DNA of 32,000 nucleotides from Candidatus Saccharimonas aalborgensis (GTDB lineage: Bacteria > Patescibacteriota > Saccharimonadia > Saccharimonadales > Saccharimonadaceae): the NCBI RefSeq assembly GCF_000392435.1, contig NC_021219.1, positions 60,001-92,000 on the forward strand. The letters run 5' to 3'. The notes below the pieces were generated by a model. That model did not search any database. It was not told where the DNA came from and saw nothing but the letters and a program-made list of their open reading frames with translations. Made by a program: the position numbers and the translations under genes. This document shows, in pieces, positions 2,650 through 27,610 of the stretch; position 1 is the first letter of the stretch, and each line of letters starts with the position of its first letter.

Positions 2650-3903
<1,254 letters not shown>

Positions 3904-3910
3904 CTTGAGC

Positions 3911-4018
3911 CTCACCACCTCCCCACTCCGAACACCGGCCCGCCGCTAACTGACTAGCTTTCGCCTTGGCGGGCCTTGGCCCATCAGGGCCAACTGTCTG
4001 TCGGGGGAGGTGGTGATA
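3911..4018 (-). repeat. GC-rich structured repeat element, family B, copy 2 (inverted relative to copies 1 and 3)
   Basis: The reverse complement aligns to copy 1 across the core, with small indels in the large loop. Perfect 13-bp closing stem tcaccacctcccc (3913-3925) / ggggaggtggtga (4004-4016). It lies between the convergent stops of tgt (3903) and yhhQ (4029). Confidence 0.9.
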
Positions 4019-4028
4019 CGCTGATGAA

Positions 4029-4703
4029 TTAGTCAACCAAGTAGCGTGCCGGTGCTTCGAAGCTATCGAGTTTTTCGTGCTTCTTGATGTAGTGAATGAC
4101 ACGCATGGTGAGTGGTGACACCGCTATTTCGGTGACTATCTTGATACAAAAGACGGTGGCGATAAGCTGAACCATCGTATCGGCCGGCATCGTGCCGCCG
4201 AACGCGAGGAGCGAAAAGACTGTGGTATCAACGAGACTACCGACACCAGAACTGCCAACAAGACGCGCCCAGAGACGCTTGCCCTTTGTCTTAATCTTGA
4301 GCGTTACGAGGACGTAGCTATTGATCAATTCACCGATAAATATCGCGGCGATACTAGCTGCAACGATCCGCCATACTACTCCCAGGATGGCATCATACGA
4401 TGATTGATTTGTCCAGCTTACATCTGCCGGCAGCATACCGACTAACCAAAAGGTTACACTAGTCAAGAGAAGCGTCATGATGCCTACGTAGAGGAGTGAC
4501 CGCATCTTGCGATATCCATATACCTCTGTCACGATATCACCCACGATATACGCCAGCGGAAACAGTATGGTTCCCGCATCAAATACTAGTGGTCCAGCAT
4601 GCACCATCTTGACACTGGCAATATTGCTGACGATAAGCGTCATCACAAATAGTCCCGATAAGAGTTCATAGACATGGACATGTTTTTTGGCAAACAGAAA
4701 CAT
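4029..4703 (-). CDS. yhhQ: Queuosine-precursor transporter, YhhQ/VUT (DUF165) family
   Basis: Track ORF of 224 aa, a polytopic membrane protein. Contains the FPLAYIVGDIVTEVYGY motif typical of YhhQ. It is adjacent to tgt and queA. Confidence 0.85.
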   Translation of the reverse strand: MFLFAKKHVHVYELLSGLFVMTLIVSNIASVKMVHAGPLVFDAGTILFPLAYIVGDIVTEVYGYRKMRSLLYVGIMTLLLTSVTFWLVGMLPADVSWTNQSSYDAILGVVWRIVAASIAAIFIGELINSYVLVTLKIKTKGKRLWARLVGSSGVGSLVDTTVFSLLAFGGTMPADTMVQLIATVFCIKIVTEIAVSPLTMRVIHYIKKHEKLDSFEAPARYLVD

Positions 4704-8902: not shown

Positions 8903-9000
8903 AAGTATAGCGTATTCCTCATATTTGACTTTTAGTGATATTTTGACAGATGCCTCCAGACACGGGTCATTATCATAGGAAAGCGGTATCTCTCCATGCA

Positions 9001-9576: not shown

Positions 9577-9698
9577 CTTCTACTCGCTTATCATTTAGTA
9601 TTACAATTCGACTATCAACTATAGCATACTTCTGGACATTTTAAAAGAGGCTAGACGCCTCAATCGGTAGGGCGGGGACAAGGAGAGAGCGGTGGTGG

Positions 9699-9730
9699 TG
9701 CAGGGAGTCCTCTTTCGAGAGCTCCCTGCA
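9699..9730 (-). terminator. GC-rich hairpin with GAAA loop 3' of the 67-aa ORF
   Basis: Minus-strand UGCAGGGAG-CUCUC-GAAA-GAGGA-CUCCCUGCA has 9 bp plus 4 inner pairs and no U-tract. A weaker gaggc/gcctc hairpin followed by UUUU lies at 9661-9643. Confidence 0.5.
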
Positions 9731-9750
9731 CCGTGCGGCCGAGTCAGGGC

Positions 9751-9954
9751 CTACCGACCCATGAGGGCCGGCCACGCCCCGAAGGGCGACGACACCGGGT
9801 CGAACGGGCTCGGCCGGTCGAGGATCTCGTCGGGGACGAGGGTCTCCTCGACCCAGACCCCGTAGACCGTCGGCTCGACGAAGGCCGTCCCGTCGAGGTT
9901 GACGACAAACTGGCCGGGACGCAGGACGACCACGACGGTGGTGCGCTCGAACAT
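9751..9954 (-). CDS. Small GC-rich hypothetical protein (67 aa)
   Basis: AGGAG (9965-9961) lies 6 nt before the ATG. 64 of 67 codons end in G or C, as in a high-GC coding frame. The overlapping 133-aa and 95-aa track ORFs are alternative frames. Confidence 0.6.
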   Translation of the reverse strand: MFERTTVVVVLRPGQFVVNLDGTAFVEPTVYGVWVEETLVPDEILDRPSPFDPVSSPFGAWPALMGR

Positions 9955-10017: not shown

Positions 10018-10071
10018 GTGCTGAGTGGCAACGATAGTCCAACTCGTTAGCCTATCATTGCCCCTCAGCAC
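10018..10071 (-). promoter_or_regulatory. Long leader hairpin in the 5' UTR of the 67-aa ORF
   Basis: 20-nt arms at 10018-10037 and 10052-10071 with a 14-nt loop. On the minus-strand RNA 18 Watson-Crick pairs, one G-U and one mismatch form. A second 5-bp hairpin lies at 9976-9990. Confidence 0.55.
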
Positions 10072-10124
10072 ATACTCTCTCCTTGTCAAAGATCGTGTGA
10101 GGTTATCTCACAACGAACAAATAC

Positions 10125-10153
10125 ATTATAGCACATTATGCATTAATTTGCAA
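10125..10153 (-). promoter_or_regulatory. Near-consensus promoter TTGCAA-17 nt-TGcTATAAT reading into cassette 1
   Basis: ttgcaa at 10148-10153; -10 is the reverse complement of attata at 10125-10130; 17-nt spacer ending in tgc (extended -10). It sits in AT-rich sequence just outside the right inverted repeat. Confidence 0.65.
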
Positions 10154-10177
10154 GCATCTTGTACTCCGCCAGGTCTC

Positions 10178-10675
10178 CTAACGGCCAAATAATCCGCCGA
10201 GAAACCCATTCTTTTTTTTCGTCCAGCCTGATTTCTCAAGTAGTTCAAAGAGTGGCTTCTTGATCTCGCTCGTATCGAAACTATACGAGTAAGTCATTCC
10301 ACCGATCGATACACTACTCTGCGGTTGTTTCGCATGCCCAAGGCCAAATCCCATTTCTTTACCTATCTTATGGCCTTTGAATCCTCCCATTTCGCCTCCA
10401 AATGATATGGTACCGTTTGTGAGAAGCGAAAAACCACTAGATTTACTTGTCTGCGTGTCCTGAGAAGTGTACGTATGCGTCAGTTCATCGAGCATCACTA
10501 CAAGCTTAAATGTCTTTTCGACATTGTTGGCGGCAAGTGGAGCCGCCCAAATAGCGTCGAGATATTTCCATTCGGCAACAATCTTGTTTCCCTGGACGGA
10601 ATAGGAGAATGGTCTTTCTGGCAGATTTAGTTGGTTAATTGCTGAAATTATTTGTTCGAGAGATAGTGGCTGCAT
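10178..10675 (-). CDS. Hypothetical protein (165 aa) with a Gly-rich central segment
   Basis: Track ORF lying 6 nt downstream of the preceding gene. No family recognised. Confidence 0.65.
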   Translation of the reverse strand: MQPLSLEQIISAINQLNLPERPFSYSVQGNKIVAEWKYLDAIWAAPLAANNVEKTFKLVVMLDELTHTYTSQDTQTSKSSGFSLLTNGTISFGGEMGGFKGHKIGKEMGFGLGHAKQPQSSVSIGGMTYSYSFDTSEIKKPLFELLEKSGWTKKKNGFLGGLFGR

Positions 10676-10681
10676 TGCAGA

Positions 10682-11164
10682 TTACTCTATCTTTGCTTCT
10701 AATGAGCTGTTGCTCGAGCGAAAATTCATCACGCGCCAATTATCACCGTTTTTTTCGAGGATGACACGGATGTACTTCGTACCCGATGATGTATCGACCG
10801 TATAGACGATGATCGCCTTTTGCGAAGAACCTGCGGTGGTTTCTACCGCACGTGCAGTCACCTTCTCGTCTCCTTGTAATGCGGGAGAGACCCGTTTGAT
10901 AACTGCATCGAGATCATCTCTCGATGTCGCACCTCGGAAGCCCTCGCTCGTTAACGCATAGGCTGCCTCGGTGTTTGCCGACTGTACATCGTTGACAAAC
11001 TCGTCACTTACCTTCTTTGGGGAATCTGTCATATTCATGACGACAATAAATATCACTCCTCCCACAATCAATAGTCCAAAAATCACGCTGATAAGTACTA
11101 CGAGCCAACGAGGAACTTTGCCTGAAGCATAGTTATTTTTTAAGTGTGTTGTTGGTGTTTTCAT
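10682..11164 (-). CDS. Membrane-anchored hypothetical protein (160 aa), NTF2/DUF4878-like ectodomain by eye
   Basis: N-terminal TM helix WLVVLISVIFGLLIVGGVIFIVV followed by a soluble domain. TAGATT lies 6 nt before the ATG. Confidence 0.65.
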   Translation of the reverse strand: MKTPTTHLKNNYASGKVPRWLVVLISVIFGLLIVGGVIFIVVMNMTDSPKKVSDEFVNDVQSANTEAAYALTSEGFRGATSRDDLDAVIKRVSPALQGDEKVTARAVETTAGSSQKAIIVYTVDTSSGTKYIRVILEKNGDNWRVMNFRSSNSSLEAKIE

Positions 11165-11241
11165 GTAAATAATCTAGTTCCTTTTTTTGTTTATTTGTCG
11201 CTGCTGGTGATTATAGCACCCTAGCTTAGAAAACTCAATTA

Positions 11242-11271
11242 TCGACAGTATTTACGCGCATGTTCTATACT
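11242..11271 (+). promoter_or_regulatory. Promoter TCGACA-18 nt-TATACT, with the -10 only 6 nt from the malic enzyme ATG
   Basis: tcgaca at 11242-11247, tatact at 11266-11271, ATG at 11278. Confidence 0.55.
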
Positions 11272-11277
11272 TGAAAG

Positions 11278-12411
11278 ATGGATTACAACCAACTCGCTCT
11301 CGATCTCCATGCGCGCTATGGCGGCAAAATTACCACTCAGCTCCGCGATACGAGCGAGCTTGATCGTGCAAAGCTCAGTGCGTATTACAGCCCTGGCGTA
11401 GGAGCAGTTAGTCAGGCGATAGCCGCTGACCCCTCGTCACTTTCCACCTATACCTGGACAAACAATCTCGTCGCTGTGATTTCTGATGGATCTGCCATCC
11501 TCGGCCTCGGGGACCTCGGTCCCAAAGCAGCCATGCCCGTCATGGAAGGCAAAGCCCTGCTGTTTAAGCGCTTTGCCGACATCGATAGCGTACCGATCGT
11601 GCTCGACGTGCACACAGCCGATGAAATCGTCGCTACTGTCAAAGCCATTGCGCCCAGTTTTGGCGCCATCAACCTCGAGGATATCGCCGCGCCAAAGTGT
11701 TTTGAGGTCGAGGAGCGACTCAAAGCTGCTCTCGACATCCCCGTCTTTCATGATGACCAACATGGTACAGCGGTGGTGACACTCGCCGGACTTATCAACG
11801 CAGCAACCGTCACTCATCGTTCACTCGTGGATTCAAAGATAGTTACTATCGGAGCAGGTGCAGCTGGCACAGCCATCATTAAGCTCTTACACCGCTATGG
11901 TTGCCGACAGATTGTAGCAATCGACAGCAAGGGTACTATCGGCGACTATCGCAATGATCTCAACGATGAAAAAAAGGCCCTTCTCGGGTATGTCGACCGT
12001 TCGGCTCACGGCTCACTCAGCGATGCGCTCAAGGAAGCCGATATCTTCATCGGCGTCAGTAAGGGCGGCCTCCTGACATCTGATCTCGTCTCACTCATGG
12101 CACCTAACCCCATCGTCTTCGCACTAGCTAATCCAACACCTGAAATTATGCCCGACGAAGCAAAAGTAGCTGGCGTCGCCGTGATAGCAACCGGCCGAAG
12201 TGATTTTCCCAACCAAGTCAACAATGCCATTGCCTTCCCCGGTATCTTTCGGGGTGCACTTGATCACGGCATCAAAAAGATTACTGACGAACATAAACTC
12301 GCCGCTGCTAAAGCTATCGCCGGATTGGTAGAAACACCTACCCCCGATACAGTTATTCCCAGCGTCTTTGATGAGCGGCTTGTGCCAACGATCGCTGCCG
12401 TCATTACTTAA
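11278..12411 (+). CDS. NAD(P)-dependent malic enzyme (short form)
   Basis: Contains YSPGVG, AVISDGSAILGLGDLGPKAAMPVMEGKALLFKRFADID and the Rossmann motif IGAGAAG. Confidence 0.9.
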   Translation: MDYNQLALDLHARYGGKITTQLRDTSELDRAKLSAYYSPGVGAVSQAIAADPSSLSTYTWTNNLVAVISDGSAILGLGDLGPKAAMPVMEGKALLFKRFADIDSVPIVLDVHTADEIVATVKAIAPSFGAINLEDIAAPKCFEVEERLKAALDIPVFHDDQHGTAVVTLAGLINAATVTHRSLVDSKIVTIGAGAAGTAIIKLLHRYGCRQIVAIDSKGTIGDYRNDLNDEKKALLGYVDRSAHGSLSDALKEADIFIGVSKGGLLTSDLVSLMAPNPIVFALANPTPEIMPDEAKVAGVAVIATGRSDFPNQVNNAIAFPGIFRGALDHGIKKITDEHKLAAAKAIAGLVETPTPDTVIPSVFDERLVPTIAAVIT

Positions 12412-12414
12412 CCT

Positions 12415-12537
12415 GAGTCTCAAACCCCTCCTCCGACAGACAGTTGGCCCTGATGGGCCAAGGCCCGCCAAGAGCGAAGGCTGATTTAGTTAGCGGCGGG
12501 CCGGTTGTGTGGAGTGAGAGAGTATGAGACTTGAGAC
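12415..12537 (+). repeat. GC-rich structured repeat element, family B, copy 3
   Basis: The core is nearly identical to copy 1 (gtctg to gtgtg and gggg to gaga changes at the 3' side). The ends gtctcaa (12417-12423) and ttgagac (12531-12537) are complementary. It fills the gap between convergent stops at 12411 and 12537. Confidence 0.9.
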
Positions 12538-15904: not shown

Positions 15905-18900
15905 ATGAAAGCTGCGCTACAAGGTCACTCTCCGCATCAACTTTAAAGGGCAGTCGTATCGCCGACGATTTATCTTTACCGAGTACCATAATGATCTCTT
16001 GCTGTCCCGGATACGTATTGCAAGCTTTCTTGAGAGACAGCAGCGCGTCGTGATCGTCTGGATTTTTGACATGAACAAATAGTTTTGTGACGAGAGACGG
16101 AGGTACCGGTATGGCGGCTTGAGCGGGAACTGACTTCGGTGAAGAAGCGACAGCTTTTTTGCGCCGCGATACCACGGCAGTCTTTGGCGCATCCATCTTG
16201 CGACCTGTCGATTCATACTGGGCAAGTTCCCGATCGCTCACAATATCAATTGTCTCCGCGATCAATTTTGCCTCGTCACCTATACCACCTTCTCTATCAC
16301 GAGCACTTACTCTGCCCGTGATCTTGACGACCACGTCTTGATGCAGCTTGTCTCCCAGTTGCTCGTACAGATTTGGAAAAATGATGACCTCACATTCACT
16401 CGATTTGTCCTCTATGCCTGCAAATGCCATCTTAGTCCCTGCTTTTGTGATAATTGTCCTGAGCGTTGTCACGAGTCCACCGACGGTAACTGACTGACCA
16501 TCAATTTTTGGTGAGATATTGTGGAGCGGGATCGTTTGTTCCTCAAAAAATGCATCAAAATTATCGAGCGGATGGGCACTAATGTAAAGACCGAGCAGCT
16601 CTCGCTCCCACATGAGTTGTTCTTTCGAGGTATATTTTGCCGGTGAAGGAAGTAGCTCAACTGAGGGTAATAACTCGCTGCTTGCCCCCAAATCGCCAAA
16701 GAGATCGGTTTGACCGCTGAGCGCTTCTTTCTGCAGCTTGCTTGCGAAGCCCAAAAGTGTTTCTAGGTTGAATAACAAGTCTGATCGATCGCCAAGGGAG
16801 TCAAATGCACCAGATTTTATGAGCGCCTCCCACGTTTTTTTGTTGACTTTACTGGTACTGACACGCTTGGCAAAATCTTCTACTGAGGTAAATTTGCCAT
16901 CCGCATCCCTTGCGCGAATAATCTCCTCGACGGCAGCAGCGCCCACTCCCTTAACCGCGGCCATACCAAATCGTATCTGCTGTTTGTCCGGCACGATAGC
17001 AAACTCAAGGTAGGATTCATTGACGTCAGGGTTGAGAACCGTTAGCCCCATGTGTTTGCACTCGGTAATTTCAATCGCTAACCGATCGATATCACCCTGG
17101 TCGCTCGTCATCAATGCCGCCATAAACGCATCAGGATAGTGTGCCTTGAGATAGGCGGTCCAATACGCAATCAAACCGTAGCATGCCGAATGAGACTTGT
17201 TAAAGGCATAGTCAGCAAAGCCAAGGATATCGTGCCAGATTTTTTCGACCGTCGCCTTTGGGACACCATTGTTTACAGCACCATCGATAAACTGCGATCC
17301 CATTTTCTTTAGGACTTCAGGAATCTTCTTGCCAATTCCTTTTCGAAGCGTATCTGCCTCACCGCCCGTAAACCCTGACATCTCTTTGCTCATCTGCATC
17401 ACTTGCTCTTGGTAGACGATCACGCCGTACGTACTTGAGAGAGCATTCTTCGTGAGCTCGTGTTCGTAGGTAACCTTTTCGAGTCCGTTTTTGCGTTTGA
17501 CGAAACTATCGGTCAGTCCCGCCCCCAAAGGACCAGGTCGATACAAAGCACACATCGCGATGATATCTTCGAATTCCGTTGGTTTTAGCTCCCGCAGGTA
17601 GCGCTTCATGCCTGCCGACTCGAGCTGAAATACCCCCGTGGTTGCTCCTTGTTGCAATAATTCAAACGTCTTTGGATCATCCATGGGTAACGTTGAGAGA
17701 TCTATGTCATTTTTATATACTTTACGGATGATACGCATTGCATTGTTGATAATGGTAAGGTTTGACAGCCCAAGAAAGTCCATCTTGAGGAGTCCTAGTT
17801 CCTCGACGGGGCCCATTGGATACTGCGTAGCAACCACGCCTTTTTGTGCCATCTCAACCGGCACATAGCGCACAATATCATCAGGTGCAATGACCACGCC
17901 CGCAGCATGGACGCCATGGCTCCGGATGGTACCTTCGAGACGAACAGCAAAATCAAAGACTTGTTTTGCAATCGGATTTGTCTCGTATTCATGCTTCAGA
18001 TCATGATCCTCGACAATACTCACCCTGAGCGGTATATGCCGTCCCTGGTTTGGCGGTGGAATGAGTTTTGCCAGACGATCGCTCTCTGCATAGGGCACCT
18101 GCAAAACGCGGGCTACATCGCGAACCGCTGCACGAGCTGCCATTTTACCGAAGGTGACGATGTTGGCGACCCGACCCTCACCATACTTTTCGGAACAGTA
18201 TCGGATTACTTCGTCTCGGCGTGTATCCTGAATGTCAATATCAATATCCGGCATACTGATACGGTCAGGGTTGAGAAATCGCTCAAAAAGCAGATCGTAC
18301 TTCAGTGGGTCAAGATCAGTAATATTAAGCGCATAGGCCACAATCGACCCAGCCGCTGAGCCACGTCCCGGACCAAACACGATACCTCGATTTTTTCCCC
18401 AGTTGATAAAGTCTTGGACGATCAAGAAATAGCCTTCATAGCCCATTTTTTCCATGACGTCCATTTCCATTTTAGCGCGATCACGAACAACGTCAGATAA
18501 GTTTGAGGTAATTTTTTCGGGAGATAGCTTGGCCGCCTCCTCGGCAGATAGCGCGGTATAGCGGACCGCTAATCCCTGGTATACAAGCTTCTTTAGATAA
18601 CTGTGTTCTGTTTCACCTTTTGGCGTGGGATACTTTGGGATCAATATTTTGCCGAGCTCAAGCTCGACTGAGCAGCGATCGGCTATCCTGCGAGTATTTC
18701 GTATGATTTCTGGGTCGCTTTCTCCCCAACGAGCAATAATATCGCGCGGGTCGGTGAGATGAAGCTCAAACTCCTTGAGGCTCATGCGATTGGCGTCTGA
18801 AAGGAACGACCCGGTGCCAACACAGAGGAGGATTTCATGTGCTTCTCGATCATTATGCTCAAGATAATGTCCATCGCATGTTACAACCATAGGGATATCG

Positions 18901-22927: not shown

Positions 22928-23353
22928 TTAGATAGCTCCCAAATCTTTCAAGGCTTGTTTGTAGGCGCTGAGCGAGCGCAGGGCTATATCGGGCGTAACA
23001 TGCACGTCCGTTTCATGAGCCAGTTGGTTGCGAATCTTGTGTGCACCCCAGACGTGATTGGCATTTGTCCAGATGTTTTGAGCAGATTTCATTCGTTCGC
23101 CCATTGTCTCGCCCTTAATATGTCGCTCTTTGAGCGCGAGATCCAGCAATTTATCTGCATTGAGTATCGCCATTGGGTAACTTTGCGGGTTTTCTCGGCT
23201 CAAGCTATTCTCGATCTCAAGCCATTTCGTTTGGTACTTCTGCGAGTCGAGGCTCGGGACGCCCCGTCTCGACATCGTCAGGTAGACGACCAAAATAATG
23301 GCAACAATCAAAACGCTCACAAGGAGAAAGAAACTAGCGGGATTTTGAGTCAT
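22928..23353 (-). CDS. Membrane-anchored alpha-helical protein with a DUF4145/HEPN-like RNxxxH motif, embedded in gatCAB
   Basis: N-terminal TM helix FFLLVSVLIVAIILVVYL. C-terminal NADKLLDLALKE...GETMGERM...AHKIRNQLAHE. Its ATG overlaps the gatA stop (ATGA at 23350-23353) and its stop is 1 nt before the gatB ATG. Confidence 0.65.
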   Translation of the reverse strand: MTQNPASFFLLVSVLIVAIILVVYLTMSRRGVPSLDSQKYQTKWLEIENSLSRENPQSYPMAILNADKLLDLALKERHIKGETMGERMKSAQNIWTNANHVWGAHKIRNQLAHETDVHVTPDIALRSLSAYKQALKDLGAI

Positions 23354-24753
23354 TCTTTGGCCTCCATACTTCCAGCAAGTGCCAGCATCGCTGCATCGCT
23401 CTTGGCCGGTCCGATAAGTTGTATCCCGATTGGCAAGCCGGCTTTTGAGACGCCGGCCGGCACGCTCAGTGCTGGCAAGCCAGCAAGACTTGCCGGGACG
23501 GTCATGACATCGGCTAGATACATTTTTACGGGGTCGTCTGTGTTTTCGCCGATACCAAATGCGGGTGTCGGTGCTGTCGGCAAAATCAGGAAATCATACT
23601 GAGAAAACAATGTATCGAATGCTTGGATCAACAACGTCCTAGCTTTTTGCGCCTGCAAATAGTAGGCATCAAAGAAGCCGCTGCTCAACACGTAGCTACC
23701 GATCATGATACGGCGCTTGTTTTCAGTAACAAATCCTTCATCGCGCGAACGTCCGTAGAGTTCTGCCAGTGTTTTTACGTCGTGCGCACGGTACCCGTAG
23801 CGTATCCCGTCAAACCGCGCGAGATTGCTACTCACCTCTGCTGGAATGATGATGTAGTACATAGCGAGGGTGTATTTGAGGAGTGGCATCTCGACTTCCT
23901 CGACGACATGTCCCGCCGCACGCAGACGCTCGACATATTCGAGCGTACAACCGCGAACCTCTTGATCGACATCATCTGACATCGCATCTTTGACAAGACC
24001 AATACGTAGCTTCGGCTGTACAAACGTTGTCGGCTCAAAGAAATCAGGTAGTGTCGTCATGTCCTTTTCGTCGCGGCCAGCCATAATGCTTGTCACGAGC
24101 GCCACATCCTCAGCGCATTTCGCGAAACATCCCATGGTATCCGTGCTACTCGCCATCGCTACTACTCCATAGCGGCTACTGGTACCATAGGTTGGCTTGT
24201 AACCATATACGCCGTTGAAGCTTGCAGGCTGCCGGATAGAGCCACCCGTATCACTACCGAGGGCAAATGGTACGATATCGAGTGCGGTCACTACTGCCGA
24301 TCCGCCCGAACTACCACCAGCAACTTTTGTCTGATCGACGGCATTTTTTGTCACGCCGTAGGCAGAGTTTTCGGTCGAAGCGCCATGAGCGAAAGCGTCG
24401 AGGTTACTCTTGCCGATACAGATGGCACCCGCCGCCTCAAGTTTGTCGACAACCGTTGCCTGGAGCGGAGCCTGGAAGTTCTCGAGTATCTTTACAGCAG
24501 CGGTCGTCGGTGCGCCAAACGCAAGATAGTTGTCTTTGACGACAAATGGTACACCCGCGAGTGGACCGACAGATTCACCGCTAGCGATACGTGTATCTAT
24601 CTCATCTGCTCGTTTGAGAGCACGATCAGCCGTCAGGCTGAGAAGCGCATGATAACCTTTGGCTTCCTTTGCCTTAGCGAGAGCTGTCTCAACTTCTTGG
24701 CGGGCGGTTGTGTCACCATTTACAATACGCGCAACTCGGTCAGTTATCTTCAT
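23350..24753 (-). CDS. gatA: Glu-tRNA(Gln) amidotransferase subunit A
   Basis: Amidase signature GGSSGGSAVVTA...GSDTGGSIRQPA. Confidence 0.95.
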   Translation of the reverse strand: MKITDRVARIVNGDTTARQEVETALAKAKEAKGYHALLSLTADRALKRADEIDTRIASGESVGPLAGVPFVVKDNYLAFGAPTTAAVKILENFQAPLQATVVDKLEAAGAICIGKSNLDAFAHGASTENSAYGVTKNAVDQTKVAGGSSGGSAVVTALDIVPFALGSDTGGSIRQPASFNGVYGYKPTYGTSSRYGVVAMASSTDTMGCFAKCAEDVALVTSIMAGRDEKDMTTLPDFFEPTTFVQPKLRIGLVKDAMSDDVDQEVRGCTLEYVERLRAAGHVVEEVEMPLLKYTLAMYYIIIPAEVSSNLARFDGIRYGYRAHDVKTLAELYGRSRDEGFVTENKRRIMIGSYVLSSGFFDAYYLQAQKARTLLIQAFDTLFSQYDFLILPTAPTPAFGIGENTDDPVKMYLADVMTVPASLAGLPALSVPAGVSKAGLPIGIQLIGPAKSDAAMLALAGSMEAKE

Positions 24754-25046: not shown

Positions 25047-25092
25047 TTGTACGTATTATAGCGCATCTATCGTTGTTTTGAAAAGCAAAGGA

Positions 25093-25121
25093 TTGACTAA
25101 ATAAATCATGTGTGTTATAAT
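25093..25121 (+). promoter_or_regulatory. Consensus promoter TTGACT-17 nt-TGtTATAAT reading into cassette 2
   Basis: ttgact at 25093-25098, tataat at 25116-25121, 17-nt spacer ending in tgt (extended -10). AT-rich, divergent from gatC. Confidence 0.7.
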
Positions 25122-25194
25122 AAGATCAATGTCTTAGGAATACATCCTTTCGTTGACAGCAACTTTAACAAGCTAGGAATACGCCTTCATTCCT

Positions 25195-25240
25195 GAATCG
25201 CACCGACTCATCAAACATACTTGATGGATGAGTGCGATTC
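25195..25240 (+). promoter_or_regulatory. Leader hairpin in the 5' UTR of the 130-aa ORF
   Basis: gaatcgcac (25195-25203) pairs with gtgcgattc (25232-25240), and actcatc with gatgagt inside; about 16 bp with a 2-nt bulge. Confidence 0.5.
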
Positions 25241-25278
25241 GGGAAGCTCAGTACCGACGCAGAAGTGGAGCCCATATC

Positions 25279-25671
25279 ATGAACTTCACTCGTATCGGCC
25301 GTCGTAACCGTGGCCGCACCGGTGCGGCGCTGCTCGTCATCGTCGGGCTCATCGCCGTCATCTGGTACATGGTGGCGGCGAACACCACCCACACGACGAC
25401 CATCACGGTCTGCAACAAGGAGCGGGTCGCGGTCAAGAACTCCGGTGAGTACCGGATCTACGCCGCCGAGGGGACGTTCGTCATGGCGGACTCCCTGCTC
25501 GGGACGGTCCGCTACGACACGGCGGACGCCTACGCGAAGGTGAAGCCCAAGACGACCTACGACGTCGTCTACAAGGGCTGGCGCATCCCCTTCTTCAGTT
25601 CGTTCCCCAACTTGCTCGAGCTCAAGGAGTCGGCCACGCAGCACCCGGAGGCCTGCGCCAACTTCGGCTGA
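25279..25671 (+). CDS. GC-rich single-pass membrane protein of unknown function (130 aa)
   Basis: Track ORF 25228-25671. ATG 25279 has GGAG 8 nt upstream. The basic N-terminus RIGRRNRGR precedes the TM helix AALLVIVGLIAVIWYMVAA. All but about 8 codons end in G/C. C-terminal motif YKGWRIPFFSSFPN. Confidence 0.65.
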   Translation: MNFTRIGRRNRGRTGAALLVIVGLIAVIWYMVAANTTHTTTITVCNKERVAVKNSGEYRIYAAEGTFVMADSLLGTVRYDTADAYAKVKPKTTYDVVYKGWRIPFFSSFPNLLELKESATQHPEACANFG

Positions 25672-25684
25672 CCGTCGGCAACGC

Positions 25685-25721
25685 GTGCGGGCTGGCGGGA
25701 CCTTGTCCCACCAGCCCGCAC
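25685..25721 (+). terminator. 17-bp GC-rich hairpin 3' of the 130-aa ORF
   Basis: gtgcgggctggcgggac (25685-25701) pairs with gtcccaccagcccgcac (25705-25721) with one C-A mismatch. There is no U-tract, as in high-GC organisms. Confidence 0.5.
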
Positions 25722-25793
25722 CGGCAATTCCTAGCTTGTTATCTCTCAGCTCCCACAGGGGAGTAATTTTATTGTCTTTATTTAGTTGTATGG

Positions 25794-25822
25794 TTGCCTA
25801 GATAACTCTTATGCTTCATAAT
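25794..25822 (+). promoter_or_regulatory. Promoter TTGCCT-17 nt-CATAAT, with the -10 9 nt from the GH13 ATG
   Basis: ttgcct at 25794-25799, cataat at 25817-25822, ATG at 25832. Confidence 0.5.
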
Positions 25823-25831
25823 AGCCAGTAG

Positions 25832-27610
25832 ATGAGTCATCAGATCAAAAAACACTTGGGGGCGATTGTTCGGCATAATGGTGTCGAGTTTCGCGTTTGG
25901 GCGCCATTTGCAAAAAATGTCAAACTCCTTACCCCCTATCTTGGAGTATTTGATGGCAGCAATACCTACGATATGCTCAGCGAGAATGACGGATACTGGT
26001 CAGCATTCGTCAAAGATGCAGAAGTCGGCCAAAATTATAAGTTTTTGATCGACACCGGCAATGAGCTGCTGACAAAAAATGACCCGCGCGGACGCGCACT
26101 CACCGCAAGCGACAATGGCGTATCGGTGGTCGTTGGGTCAGATTTCGACTGGGGCGACGACCTTTTCATGCCAATTCCAAGGGAGCAGCAGATTATCTAC
26201 GAACTTCATATCGGCACCTTTAATCGCCGCGACCCCGCTACGACCGGCACCTTCTACGATGCAATCGAAAAACTTGACTACCTCCTAGACCTCGGCATCA
26301 ACATGATCGAGGTCATGCCGGTTACCAGCATGGCGTATAGCAACGGCTGGGGCTACAACGTCACCGACGTATTTTCGATCGAAAATGCCTATGGCGGGCG
26401 CCATGGACTTATGGAGTTTGTTAAAGCCTGCCATATGAGAGGTATCGGTGTCATTATTGACGTGGTGTACAACCATTTCATGAGCGGCGACCTATGGCGT
26501 TTCGATGGATGGTATGAAAACGACCGTGGTGGCATCTACTTCTACAACGACTGGCGAGGCGATACTCCCTGGGGCGCACGACCTGACTATGGAAGAGCCG
26601 AGGTGCGACAATTTCTGATCGATAGTATCGTGATGTGGTTTAACGAATACCGCGTTGATGGTCTCAGGCTTGATAGCACGGCTTATATGCGCAACACGCT
26701 CGGCTACAATGATGATCCCGCCCATGATGTCGATGGCGCCTGGAGCCTCATGCAGGATATTACTGATGTGGCGCACAGGATACGGCCCGGCTCCATCGTT
26801 ATCGCAGAAGACACCTCGGGCAATGACTATATAACGAAGCAGCGCCAGGATGGTGGATGTGGGTTTGACGCGCAGTGGGGTATTCCTTTTCCACACGCTA
26901 TCCGGAAAATGCTCGGACTTGGTACCTCATGGCCAGTTGATCTCGGTGAGCAACTGCTTCGAGCGTATAATGGTGATGTCTTTCAACGCGTTATCTTTAG
27001 TGACTCTCACGATACCGCAGCCAATGGCTCAACCCGCATTACCAGCGCTATTTCACCAGAAAATCCCAATAGCACGAGGGTGCGTCAGGACACAATTATT
27101 GCGTCAGCAATCACCCTTACGTCACCCGGTATTCCTATGCTACTTCAAGGCCAGGAGTTTTTGCAGGAGGGTGCATTCACTGATTGGCAAGTGCTCGAAT
27201 GGGAAAAAACTGAGCAATTCGCCGGCATCGTGAAAGCCCACCAAGACATCATCGACCTCCGCAAAAATACCTACGGCAATACAAGTGGGCTACTTGGGCA
27301 ATCAGTTAGAGTGTTTCATAGAAACGATCAGGGCCAAGTGTTTGGTTATCATCGCTGGAGCCGAGGCGGGCCAGGCGACGATGTGCTCGTGCTGATTAAT
27401 TTTGGTGATACCGAATATCACGAGTATCATCTAGGCTTTCCGCGCCCAGGTGAGTGGCGAATACGGTTCAACAGCAGCTGGCAAGGCTATAATAGCGACT
27501 TTCCCGAGTTAACTCCGGACAGCGTATCCACCGACGATAGCTGTAATCTCGCCATGGACATCCCAGCACGCAGCGTGCTCATTTTGTCACAAGACGCTAC
27601 TGCTTCTTAA
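25832..27610 (+). CDS. GH13 alpha-glucan enzyme with an N-terminal CBM48-like domain (branching-enzyme or trehalohydrolase-like)
   Basis: GH13 regions DVVYNH, VDGLRLDS, VIAEDTS and FSDSHDT. The N-terminal GVEFRVWAP...DGYW resembles CBM48. Confidence 0.85.
   Translation: MSHQIKKHLGAIVRHNGVEFRVWAPFAKNVKLLTPYLGVFDGSNTYDMLSENDGYWSAFVKDAEVGQNYKFLIDTGNELLTKNDPRGRALTASDNGVSVVVGSDFDWGDDLFMPIPREQQIIYELHIGTFNRRDPATTGTFYDAIEKLDYLLDLGINMIEVMPVTSMAYSNGWGYNVTDVFSIENAYGGRHGLMEFVKACHMRGIGVIIDVVYNHFMSGDLWRFDGWYENDRGGIYFYNDWRGDTPWGARPDYGRAEVRQFLIDSIVMWFNEYRVDGLRLDSTAYMRNTLGYNDDPAHDVDGAWSLMQDITDVAHRIRPGSIVIAEDTSGNDYITKQRQDGGCGFDAQWGIPFPHAIRKMLGLGTSWPVDLGEQLLRAYNGDVFQRVIFSDSHDTAANGSTRITSAISPENPNSTRVRQDTIIASAITLTSPGIPMLLQGQEFLQEGAFTDWQVLEWEKTEQFAGIVKAHQDIIDLRKNTYGNTSGLLGQSVRVFHRNDQGQVFGYHRWSRGGPGDDVLVLINFGDTEYHEYHLGFPRPGEWRIRFNSSWQGYNSDFPELTPDSVSTDDSCNLAMDIPARSVLILSQDATAS

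Follow-up and report, generated by a model that had tools for sequence, protein, structure and literature searches.

The chromosome of Candidatus Saccharimonas aalborgensis (about 1 Mb, 50.6% GC) carries, between gatC and a GH13 gene, a small GC-rich gene enclosed by two perfect 15-bp inverted repeats. This arrangement raises the question of how the gene reached this position and whether the repeats are the ends of a mobile piece of DNA, a trace of its joining, or part of the message that it encodes. We analysed the locus, which we call cassette 2, within a stretch of 32,000 nucleotides (contig NC_021219.1, positions 60,001 to 92,000 of the forward strand) that is referred to as the window; coordinates are counted from its first letter. 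The genes neighbouring cassette 2 and a second such segment, cassette 1, are gatCAB, GH13, uvrB, dnaE and rplS, and they are not part of a prophage.

Comparison with sister species showed what this locus looks like when it is empty. In 28 loci from sister species of Saccharibacteria, gatC and the GH13 gene are adjacent and none (0 of 28) has a homologue of the cassette 2 gene; these loci comprise the gatC-GH13 region without rplS, and the result refers to cassette 2. The spacer between the two genes is 78 to 153 bp long in the 11 sister loci measured, compared with 785 bp in Ca. S. aalborgensis. Since the sister species have the two genes side by side, with a short spacer and no homologue of the gene, the additional DNA of about 710 bp is an insertion. 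On the left, native DNA is marked by the gatC promoter on the reverse strand (25055-25084, with TATAAT at 25055-25060 and a -35-like TTTTCA/TTCAAA), and the motif ATTATAGCG beside the gatC start is conserved in the sister species. On the right, the native GH13 promoter (25794-25822, forward strand, TTGCCT-17-CATAAT) contains a motif, TTGCC...CTTATGCTTCATAAT, that is also conserved. With the end of the gatC promoter at about 25085 and the start of the conserved GH13 promoter at 25794, we placed the inserted block, which is absent from the sister species, at about 25086-25793 on the forward strand, with edges accurate to within about 8 nt. Judged by this comparison, a block of about 710 bp was inserted into a divergent-promoter spacer of about 90 bp in the lineage of Ca. 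S. aalborgensis, and the empty site in 28 sister species bears out the insertion proposed in a preliminary description of this DNA. A 10-bp inverted repeat (ACTAAATAAA at 25096-25105 and TTTATTTAGT at 25777-25786, unstranded) lies near both edges of the insert; it is AT-rich and may therefore be a chance occurrence.

The inserted segment is foreign in base composition. Its ORF of 130 aa (25279-25671, forward strand) has a GC content of 64% and a third-position GC content (GC3) of 93%, compared with a GC3 of 50-58% in the neighbouring genes, which agrees with the GC-rich 130-aa ORF reported earlier. Consensus scans alone describe cassette 2 as a single gene between its own promoter and its own terminator, with all parts on the forward strand. 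The predicted promoter TTGACT-17-TGtTATAAT (25093-25121) matches the consensus at 11 of 12 positions, has an extended -10 and is conserved in all alleles. The left repeat arm, TAACAAGCTAGGAAT (25166-25180), lies about 37 nt after the predicted transcription start. It is followed by a leader hairpin whose core pairs GAATCGCAC (25195-25203) with GTGCGATTC (25232-25240) and which extends in the fold to 25190-25245, with a 14-bp base and an inner stem; allelic changes of C to T and G to A in this hairpin are compatible with pairing. The predicted Shine-Dalgarno sequence GGAG (25267-25270) is 8 nt before the ATG at 25279. Downstream of the ORF is a GC-rich 17-bp hairpin (25685-25721; 17-nt arms, 94% complementary) that lacks a T run and ends 5 nt before the right repeat arm, ATTCCTAGCTTGTTA (25727-25741). 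This arm lies in the predicted 3' UTR and is complementary to the left arm at 15 of 15 positions. A predicted intrinsic terminator of host type (25749-25774) comes next, with the stem GCTCCC-ACAG-GGGAGT at 25749-25764 followed by AATTTTATTG.

The preliminary description had named the promoter, both 15-bp arms, the GGAG, the GC hairpin and a leader hairpin at 25195-25240, and each of these is present, the leader hairpin being larger in the fold. Its two-codon mini-ORF, ATG TCT TAG, is found at 25129-25137 on the forward strand, at the predicted 5' end, but is not conserved: it has 2, 3 or 23 codons depending on the allele (3 in L099 and L100, 23 in L009). TAGGAATAC occurs at 25135 and 25174 and ATTCCT at 25189-25194, as described, but the local pairing it proposed between AGGAAT and ATTCCT competes with the much stronger 14-bp base (25190-25203/25232-25245) that both the minimum free energy (MFE) and centroid folds use. 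Because the GC hairpin is without a T run and a host-type terminator with a T run follows the right arm, the transcript probably does not end at this hairpin, which may instead be a 3' structure of the mRNA or a terminator of the donor. Rfam gave no match at the gathering score in the whole window, and the one match near the cassette at E<=1 was a spurious miRNA.

The encoded protein belongs to a family known from phages. The AlphaFold model (pLDDT 86.6) contains a helix at residues 11-34, consistent with the single TM helix expected from the earlier reading, and then beta strands that form an OB-fold-like domain. The match to Pfam DUF1523 (PF07509) is real but marginal (24.2 bits with a cut-off of 23, E 2.5e-5) and covers positions 103-146 of the 176 in the profile; several homologues of the protein carry a precomputed PF07509 match. 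PHROG 301 ('secreted protein') is matched over its full length (residues 17-120 against positions 18-129 of 130, E 6.4e-16), and the two matches substantiate the DUF1523-like product that had been suggested. The best Foldseek matches were proteins of Gordonia phage Jumbo and Streptomyces phage WheeHeim (E 1.7e-7 to 1.8e-6), and PDB matches were weak and of OB-fold or AB5 B-subunit-like type (E at least 6e-3). The folded ectodomain contains conserved cysteines. Together, the model and the profile matches show the predicted product to be an OB-fold protein with a membrane anchor that belongs to the phage DUF1523 / PHROG 301 family.

Members of this family are found widely among phages that infect Actinobacteria (Gordonia, Mycobacterium, Arthrobacter, Streptomyces), Vibrio and Bacillus. 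In the literature, we found DUF1523 in phage overexpression screens alone; overexpression of the DUF1523 protein of mycobacteriophage Waterfoul (gp49) strongly inhibits growth (PMC9339283). The modelled TM helix plus beta domain is like that of the Gordonia and Streptomyces phage proteins (Foldseek E of the order of 1e-7 to 1e-6), although no deposited phage protein is more than 43% identical to the product. The nearest relatives are 50-68% identical and are GC-rich islands in contigs of about 44-53% GC, where these were read. Six other contigs, one of them labelled Saccharimonadales, have their homologues in such islands (44-53% GC outside the gene). Those flanks that were read show promoter-like motifs and 3' hairpins; the 15-bp repeat is missing around the homologues in other genomes. 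A scan of viral contigs found no relatives of the protein, and a metagenome scan found four loci, two of which are the same locus in other strains.

Cassette 1, on the reverse strand, has the geometry of cassette 2 around an unrelated gene, as comparison of the two sequences indicates. It has a predicted promoter from the consensus scan (TTGCAA-17-TGcTATAAT, 10125-10153), a left arm GACAAGGAGAGAG (10075-10087) about 31 nt after the predicted start, a leader hairpin (10018-10071), an ORF of 67 aa with a GC3 of 96% (9751-9954), a GC hairpin (9697-9732), a 13-bp right arm CTCTCTCCTTGTC (9677-9689) and a predicted terminator (GAGGC-GTCTA-GCCTC-TTTT, 9643-9661) upstream of the rplS promoter. Measured from the predicted start, the arms begin at +37 nt in cassette 2 and at +31 nt in cassette 1; from their end to the terminator stem there are 7 and 15 nt, respectively. 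The cassette 1 product is not hydrophobic and is of no known family: it has no phage, Pfam, PHROG or NCBIfam match, and its homologues are its own alleles only. The common order of parts and the ACAAG start and CTTGT end of both repeat pairs had been remarked upon before, and we confirmed both. In addition, the left arms share the 10-mer CTTTRACAAG, which has 4 exact copies in the window compared with 0.10 expected; the remaining two are within dnaE and gatA, each without a partner. The non-coding parts of the two cassettes are weakly similar (p = 0.03-0.12).

Four other GC-rich modules of the same species consist of a promoter, an ORF and a hairpin without such repeats. For one of them there is a within-species pair of empty and filled sites, in which promoter, ORF and hairpin are gained or lost together as a unit. 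The two bracketed modules have the highest GC3 (96% and 93%) and those with a GC3 of 73-87% are unbracketed. PHROG and NCBIfam searches with the other GC-rich ORFs gave no match, and we found nothing on such modules in the literature on Saccharibacteria. Cassette 2 appears to belong to a set of several small GC-rich modules of this genome that are equipped with promoters.

We asked whether the repeats could have arisen by chance. The window contains one perfect inverted repeat of 15 nt or more whose arms are separated by 20-700 nt, whereas 0.02 were found per dinucleotide shuffle. At a length of at least 13 nt there are three, compared with 0.28 expected, and only 1 of 200 shuffles reached this number. 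There are only two strong GC islands in the window and both are bracketed by repeats; brackets of at least 13 nt occurred in 1 of 500 random control segments. A chance origin of the repeats is unlikely.

The position of the repeats within the insertion is informative. The preliminary description took them to bound the cassette as its termini. By contrast, the insert reaches 80 nt beyond the left arm and about 55 nt beyond the right one, so that the repeats are inside the block and not at its edges. The motifs of the promoter and the T-run terminator that the insertion carries fall outside the repeats, placing these in the predicted 5' and 3' UTRs. For either predicted transcript, the arms are paired in the MFE fold as well as in the centroid fold (z = -8.2 and -9.1). 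Energies of the 5' UTR/3' UTR duplexes relative to shuffles (z -1.4 to -2.1), computed with a routine that behaved like a co-fold, do not discriminate.

On this basis we favour, at about even confidence, the reading that cassette 2 is a horizontally acquired, self-contained, moron-like expression module of the chromosome whose mRNA ends pair. Morons, as defined by Hendrix and colleagues, are reportedly extra transcription units in lambdoid and other prophages. Cassette 2 resembles them in being one small gene of atypical composition with its own predicted promoter and terminator, set between genes that are adjacent in relatives. It differs in that its neighbours are housekeeping genes and its place is a chromosome of about 1 Mb rather than a prophage, and its long structured leader and complementary UTRs go beyond the moron concept. 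The module would bring a near-consensus sigma-70-type promoter, a long structured 5' UTR, the GC-rich gene and the GC-rich 3' hairpin, and its T-run terminator would insulate the downstream GH13 promoter. Once the 3' UTR had been synthesized, both arms would pair and close leader, ORF and GC hairpin in one large loop. Such a clamp may act at the level of RNA: it would be a double-stranded site for processing, or it would block exonucleases and so set the stability, and hence the expression, of the foreign mRNA. The transcript ends used here are predicted from consensus motifs, and pairing of the arms in vivo, like any effect on stability or translation, is inferred. Direct translational control is not obvious, because the clamp spares both the Shine-Dalgarno sequence and the start codon. 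The 10-mer shared by both left arms is a feature of which a simple clamp gives no account.

Complementary UTRs that pair are known from the icaR mRNA of S. aureus, the hbs mRNA of B. subtilis and the fold-back element of hok. The cassettes, which we know from sequence alone, are like these in that stretches of their predicted 5' and 3' UTRs are complementary and would, as predicted, close the mRNA. Whereas the 3' element of icaR and of hok covers the ribosome-binding region, the left arm of cassette 2 is 87 nt upstream of the Shine-Dalgarno sequence. RNase III processing stems flank rRNAs, and Correia/MITE hairpins occur in Neisseria mRNAs. The predicted clamp is similar to both as a long-range or repeat-derived perfect duplex in a transcript that could be cut or could stabilize it, and the genome holds a mobile family of small, 115-nt elements closed by a repeat stem. 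At 15 bp (13 bp in cassette 1), however, the duplex is short for a classical RNase III substrate, and unlike Correia/MITE hairpins the arms are unique and not members of a repeat family.

We examined alleles of the cassettes from other strains. As seen in the allele sequences, cassette 2 is a mosaic: a hypervariable N-terminal block of codons 1-45 (25279-25413, forward strand) is swapped between strains and the 3' part is a low-diversity tract in all of them. Both the allelic mosaicism and the low-diversity tract suggest that recombination has spread the cassette within the species. The arms have no variable site in 4 alleles of cassette 2 and 6 distinct alleles of cassette 1. Local non-coding variability is about 0.1 per site, and this, together with the low diversity of the cassette 2 3' tract, makes the invariance of the arms weakly informative. 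Since the arms never vary, the clamp is without covariation. Selection on RNA structure near the arms is suggested by covariation in cassette 1, where 4 pairs of the 3' GC hairpin changed on both sides between alleles and are still 100% paired, and the leader hairpin has one compensatory pair.

If the repeats are not a clamp, the next best account is that they are a neutral scar of DNA assembly with no present function that will decay. We regard this as possible, although clearly not probable. A scar could have formed by fold-back or template switching during illegitimate recombination or by insertion of foreign DNA at the midpoint of a palindrome that was already there. The arms are perfect Watson-Crick duplexes with no G-U pair, which fits an origin at the level of DNA at least as well as it fits a clamp. 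Their perfection needs no selection because most of cassette 2 is a low-diversity tract that apparently spread recently. The restriction of repeats to the two highest-GC3 modules also agrees with a scar, as does their absence from homologues in other genomes, and the lack of a clamp at these homologues and at the four other modules speaks against a clamp. On the other hand, two independent scars with equal geometry and a common left-arm 10-mer would be a coincidence. The invariance of the right arm of cassette 1 between variable flanks also counts against a scar. Moreover, the left arms are 98-120 nt upstream of the GC-rich part with a leader of host-like composition between, and for this reason they are not at a visible junction of foreign and native DNA.

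A rather unlikely but broader idea is that Ca. S. aalborgensis installs foreign GC-rich genes, from actinobacterial hosts or their phages, into a standard chassis in which the arms and CTTTRACAAG are lineage-specific signals. The order of such a chassis may be a strong promoter, about 30-37 nt, an arm, a structured leader, the ORF, a GC hairpin, an arm and a terminator. The system could serve to capture or exchange genes, to invert DNA, or, as a dedicated RNA system, to process foreign mRNAs or close them into circles, and the 115-nt repeat-closed elements would then be an ORF-less relative.

A mobile cassette bounded by the repeats, either MITE-like or moved by site-specific recombination, was also considered. 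Here ACAAG...CTTGT would be recognized by a transposase or recombinase and the cassette would have landed downstream of a promoter. This is suggested by the shared outer ACAAG/CTTGT and the excess of CTTTRACAAG, by a TA that flanks a 13-bp version of the cassette 2 repeat, by the mobile 115-nt family and by an IS30-like transposase that adjoins cassette 1 in some strains. However, the inserted DNA continues past both arms and includes the promoter and terminator, and the empty-site boundaries, as mapped by comparison, largely refute repeats at the termini. The repeats thus differ from the ends of a MITE or IS element. No consistent target-site duplication was found (TA is possible for cassette 2, none for cassette 1), and no direct repeat of at least 8 nt flanks either cassette. 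Further copies of either arm pair are absent from about 52 kb of the genome and about 1 Mb of related loci. Viral contigs have no such pair either; there, a 15-mer arm had 40 single matches, a chance level. No transposase, integrase or recombinase was found among the genes and ORFs of the window, the CTTTRACAAG copies in dnaE and gatA are unpartnered and other modules come or go without repeats. The preliminary description had proposed in advance to look for ACAAG/CTTGT termini in further cassettes; we found none in the same 52 kb and 1 Mb, and on this ground the mobile-cassette reading, which we rate as unlikely, fails.

Very unlikely is an invertible ON/OFF switch, in which the repeats would be crossover sites and a recombinase would flip leader, ORF and hairpin for phase variation of a surface protein. 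Known inversion sites include lengths of 13-15 bp, the segment is flanked by short inverted repeats beside a fixed promoter with the ORF inside them, and the product is predicted to be membrane-anchored and extracytoplasmic with a strain-variable N-terminus. Known invertible switches, however, usually have the promoter between the repeats, and here it is outside. The gene has the same direction as the downstream gene in all of about 45 independent contigs with cassette 1 or 2, so that none is inverted, and there is no recombinase or invertase nearby among the window genes. An apparent opposite-strand gene in contig L125 is a gene-calling artefact in which an antisense ORF was chosen; this contig is colinear over the whole spacer.

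We give hardly any credence to a hok-like lock of the type I toxin kind, in which 3'-5' pairing would keep the mRNA inert until processing freed the message of a membrane-damaging protein. The 5'-3' complementarity, highly structured leader and strong, predicted constitutive promoter would suit it, as would the growth inhibition by Waterfoul gp49 on overexpression (PMC9339283). Against this, the product is a folded protein of 130 aa with conserved cysteines in its ectodomain and not a peptide of under about 60 aa with an antisense RNA. No antisense promoter was predicted in the promoter and terminator scan of cassette 2, the ribosome-binding site is untouched by the clamp and the cassette 1 product is not hydrophobic.

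Several further candidates were rejected. Against an integron cassette, the right junctions read GTTATCT in cassette 2 and GTCCCCG in cassette 1 rather than GTTRRRY, and no integrase was found among the window genes. The two hairpins do not resemble one another, which speaks against ends of the IS200/IS605 type, and a retron was dropped because a reverse transcriptase is lacking. The variable N-terminus shows changes of every kind and has no template repeat, so a diversity-generating retroelement was dismissed as well. With just 4 copies in 32 kb, CTTTRACAAG was likewise rejected as a DNA uptake sequence.

Saccharibacteria live as obligate epibionts and have very small genomes, and little is known of the way in which they acquire new genes and express them. 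The locus described here is a cleanly bounded and recent acquisition of a phage-type envelope protein. If the arms are only a scar, they still preserve a record of the joining of the DNA. A functional UTR clamp, by contrast, would be a rare and clean case of 5'-3' closure of a bacterial mRNA that is visible to computation, and it would offer a handle on how foreign genes are controlled in a streamlined genome.

All parts attributed to cassette 2, the module between gatC and the GH13 gene, in the preliminary description were found where it had placed them. They include a near-consensus promoter (TTGACT-17-TGtTATAAT, 25093-25121), a perfect 15-bp inverted repeat (arms at 25166-25180 and 25727-25741), GGAG 8 nt 5' of the ATG at 25279 followed by the 130-aa ORF, and a 17-bp GC hairpin (25685-25721). 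A host-type terminator, GCTCCC-ACAG-GGGAGT followed by AATTTTATTG, occupies 25749-25774. The ORF has a GC content of 64%, in a window of 50.6% GC, and a third-position GC content (GC3) of 93% versus 50-58% in neighbouring genes. The identical 130-aa protein is encoded in CP065015.1 (1,006,672 bp) and in other assemblies, and GatA from the window matches, at 100% identity, GatA from a MAG named Candidatus Saccharimonas aalborgensis. Because of the high GC content, an antisense ORF of 159-160 aa is also open across the module (25165-25644, minus strand, in the window; 16259-16741 in L125, a contig of another strain). In one public annotation this ORF is called and the real gene is not, a choice that can look like an inversion or like another gene.

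A scan with GatA, using one genome per species, yielded 80 Saccharibacteria loci. The gatC and GH13 genes were adjacent and divergent in 28 of these, none of which had a homologue of the 130-aa protein. The spacer, measured in 11 of the 28, was 78-153 bp long versus 785 bp in the window. This empty-site comparison confirms that cassette 2 is an insertion. The native gatC promoter on the left (ATTATAGCG beside the start codon, with the -35 reaching to ~25084) and the native GH13 promoter on the right (TTGCCT...CTTATGCTTCATAAT, 25794-25822) both have clear counterparts in sister species. Since these two promoters together make up a normal spacer, the inserted block spans ~25086-25793 and includes both the near-consensus promoter on the left and the host-type terminator on the right. 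The 15-bp arms, 80 nt and ~55 nt in from the edges of the block, are not the ends of the insert, which is larger than the repeat-bounded segment. A weaker, AT-rich 10-bp inverted repeat (ACTAAATAAA, 25096-25105; TTTATTTAGT, 25777-25786) lies near the true edges of the insert, its left arm overlapping the -35 and spacer of the cassette 2 promoter; this outer repeat may be due to chance.

The 130-aa protein matched DUF1523 in Pfam marginally (24.2 bits with a cut-off of 23 bits) and matched phrog_301, 'secreted protein', over its full length in PHROGs (6e-16). Using tblastn, we found matches in 396 phage records, all below 60% identity and at most 43% among the matches listed, from phages of Vibrio, Gordonia, Bacillus, Mycobacterium, Arthrobacter, Streptomyces, Microbacterium and Corynebacterium. 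An AlphaFold model built with 69 homologues (pLDDT 86.6) predicts an N-terminal transmembrane helix (residues 11-34) and, after it, a small beta domain. The closest models were of Gordonia and Streptomyces phage proteins that are uncharacterised or described as 'transmembrane' (E 1e-7 to 1e-6). Solved structures gave only weak OB-fold matches to baculovirus LEF-3 and AB5 toxin B-subunits (E at least 6e-3). Two cysteines (C45 and C126) and the motif KGWRIPFFSxFPN are conserved. M. smegmatis is strongly inhibited by overexpression of the DUF1523 protein Waterfoul gp49 (PMC9339283).

The nearest relatives that could be placed (47-68% identity) are on five contigs, L017, L018, L120, L121 and L126, the last labelled Candidatus Saccharimonadales, in markedly different neighbourhoods. 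Outside the gene these contigs are 44-53% GC, and each gene is an island of high GC (GC3 72-98%). In those flanks that were read, a promoter-like TTGACx...TGtTATAAT lies 5' of the gene and a hairpin 3' of it. No flanking inverted repeats longer than 8 nt were found at any of the five homologues; the bracket of paired arms is therefore a property of this genome rather than of the gene family. The L126 homologue (GC3 98%, from a Saccharimonadales MAG) and its GC hairpin lie between 9-bp direct repeats AGGTTTCAA (3196-3204 and 3678-3686), which could be junction microhomology or a target duplication. Another copy, 48% identical, is on a densely packed contig of ~56% GC (L101) and shows no GC contrast.

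At this site the species carries at least five types of allele (the window, L009-L016, L099/L019, L100 and L125). They differ very little in the leader and the 3' two-thirds of the ORF, or in the hairpin, right arm and terminator. Codons 1-45 (25279-25413), encoding the cytoplasmic tail and transmembrane helix, form a discrete block that has been exchanged between strains, with 50 of 135 sites variable versus 12 of 258 in the remaining ORF. There are two types of this block, with ~45% amino acid identity, and L125 is a recombinant that joins a window-type leader and 3' part to an L009-type N-terminus. In the remainder of the gene, selection is purifying (7 synonymous versus 2-3 non-synonymous differences). 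Variability at four-fold sites among these strains is 18-29% for gatA, gatC and the GH13 gene, and the tract from the 3' part of the module through the GH13 promoter (25450-25900) has just 10 variable sites in 450 nt. Given this low variation relative to the flanking genes, the 3' part of cassette 2 looks like a tract that has recently spread via recombination. The arms contain no variable sites; with a local rate of ~0.1 per site and a low-diversity tract, this invariance argues only weakly for constraint.

Cassette 1, on the minus strand, has the same order of parts as cassette 2, as had been proposed, at similar distances. Its promoter (TTGCAA-17-TGcTATAAT, 10153-10125) is followed by a small 5' hairpin, the left arm GACAAGGAGAGAG (10087-10075), a long leader hairpin (10071-10018), AGGAG and a 67-aa ORF (9954-9751, GC3 96%), a GC hairpin (9732-9697), the right arm (9689-9677) and a T-run terminator (9661-9643) immediately 5' of the rplS promoter. 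Both arms are unaltered in alleles of this module (76-81% protein identity), which carry another, similarly shaped hairpin in place of the ORF's 3' end and the GC hairpin. Four pairs of the GC hairpin are altered on both sides and all still pair, and one pair in the leader hairpin covaries. The region 5' of the cassette 1 promoter is a strain-variable spot, with two hypothetical genes that are not GC-rich in the window (160 and 165 aa, 10164-11277), a different small gene in strain contigs L113/L114 (L113 4502-4790), a Phage_cement_2-like gene at L115 1-700, and an IS30-like transposase in place of the promoter itself in L117/L119 (L117 2221-3255).

Such brackets exceed chance expectation. In 200 dinucleotide shuffles of the window, with arm spacing of 20-700 nt, perfect inverted repeats of at least 15 nt occurred 0.02 times per shuffle (one observed) and those of at least 13 nt 0.28 times (three observed, a number reached in 1 of 200 shuffles). 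The window has just two strong GC islands, both of them with brackets (13 and 15 nt), and a bracket of at least 13 nt was present in 1 of 500 random control segments. None was found in ~100 GC islands from ~1 Mb of other Saccharibacteria loci. The left arms of the two cassettes share CTTTRACAAG at their outer edge (10082-10091 and 25163-25172). This motif has four exact copies in the window versus 0.10 expected; the remaining two, within dnaE (FNKSH motif; 17196-17205) and antisense in gatA (23988-23997), have no partner.

In ~52 kb of this genome surveyed, there are further GC-rich, promoter-bearing small genes without brackets. Two tandem modules (2612-1410, minus strand) have promoters TTGCAA-17-CATAAT (2612-2584) and TTGAAA-17-TGtTATAAA (~2127-2095), and their ORFs of 116 aa (GC3 87%) and 198 aa (multi-TM, GC3 74%) have no family match. 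Each is closed by a copy of one 46-nt hairpin element (1410-1455 and 2133-2178), and the two copies are 98% identical. Another, strain-specific module (L125 5997-6503) lies between an M16 peptidase gene and fba and consists of TTGCAA-17-TATAAT, the RBS AAAGGAGGAG, a 101-aa multi-TM ORF and a hairpin. It is replaced by 26 nt in the genome of the window (L124 6478-6503), a clean within-species filled/empty pair without long repeats, which shows that promoter, ORF and hairpin are gained or lost as one block. A strain-specific 86-aa module (GC3 87%) between the rplS terminator and rnhB (L115 1905-2426, minus strand) has TTGACT-17-TATAAT and a GC hairpin with a T run; its leader opens with TTTTGACAAC, related to CTTTRACAAG, and just 38 nt of it remain in the window (8915-8952). 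GC3 is 73-87% in the unbracketed modules versus 93-96% in the two bracketed ones.

The 86-aa module adjoins a copy of a multi-copy, GC-rich structured repeat of ~115 nt (window 3898-4030, 225-340 and 12410-12526; L122 887-995), which is strain-specific at L115 2296-2409 and L113 6394-6507. Two hairpins make up its conserved core of 80 nt, around which inverted arms of 13-20 nt vary in sequence from copy to copy with complementarity kept, and three of its four fixed copies lie between convergent genes. No match was found in Rfam, viral contigs or sister-species loci. The repeat resembles a family of MITE-like elements, terminators or ncRNAs that has yet to be described. A 141-aa ORF between gatA and gatB in the gatCAB operon (22928-23353, minus strand), present in other strains too, has no credible family match. 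Just left of window position 1, upstream of queA, three adjacent small genes (83, 73 and 79 aa; GC 57-62%, GC3 63-74%; L122 9073-9786) without family matches may be further acquired genes.

In both predicted cassette transcripts, the arms pair in the MFE and centroid structures and close the leader, ORF and GC hairpin in one loop (fold z-scores of -8.2 and -9.1 versus shuffles). The local AGGAAT/ATTCCT pairing suggested as an alternative is absent from the fold, since ATTCCT is taken up in the base of the 14-bp leader hairpin. The best reading of the repeats is as transcript segments that form a clamp between the 5' and 3' UTRs, because they lie between promoter and terminator in two unrelated modules of like geometry and away from the DNA junctions, and because neighbouring RNA hairpins show selection for structure. 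Known 5'-3' pairings and RNase III stems suggest, by analogy, that such a clamp would act in RNA processing or in shielding the mRNA from nucleases. The main rival, that the repeats are a neutral scar formed at the DNA level, is consistent with how perfect the arms are, with the lack of such arms in older modules and in homologues, and with a young tract of low diversity. Other explanations fare worse than a scar. Transposon-like termini are contradicted by the insert boundaries and lack both a consistent target duplication and other copies in ~52 kb of this genome, in ~1 Mb of related loci and, as pairs, in viral contigs; the proposed insertion is supported and the repeat-bounded mobile cassette is not. 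An invertible switch is contradicted by a single orientation in all of ~45 contigs and by the lack of a recombinase among the genes of the window. A type I toxin arrangement is at odds with the size and fold of the protein.

There is good support for reading cassette 2 as a self-contained expression module, recently acquired, with a gene for a phage-type membrane protein. It resembles a moron in being an acquired module but is chromosomal, and its predicted mRNA may be of the known kind with complementary ends. Cassette 2 matters chiefly for its setting in a genome-reduced epibiont and for its recurring architecture.
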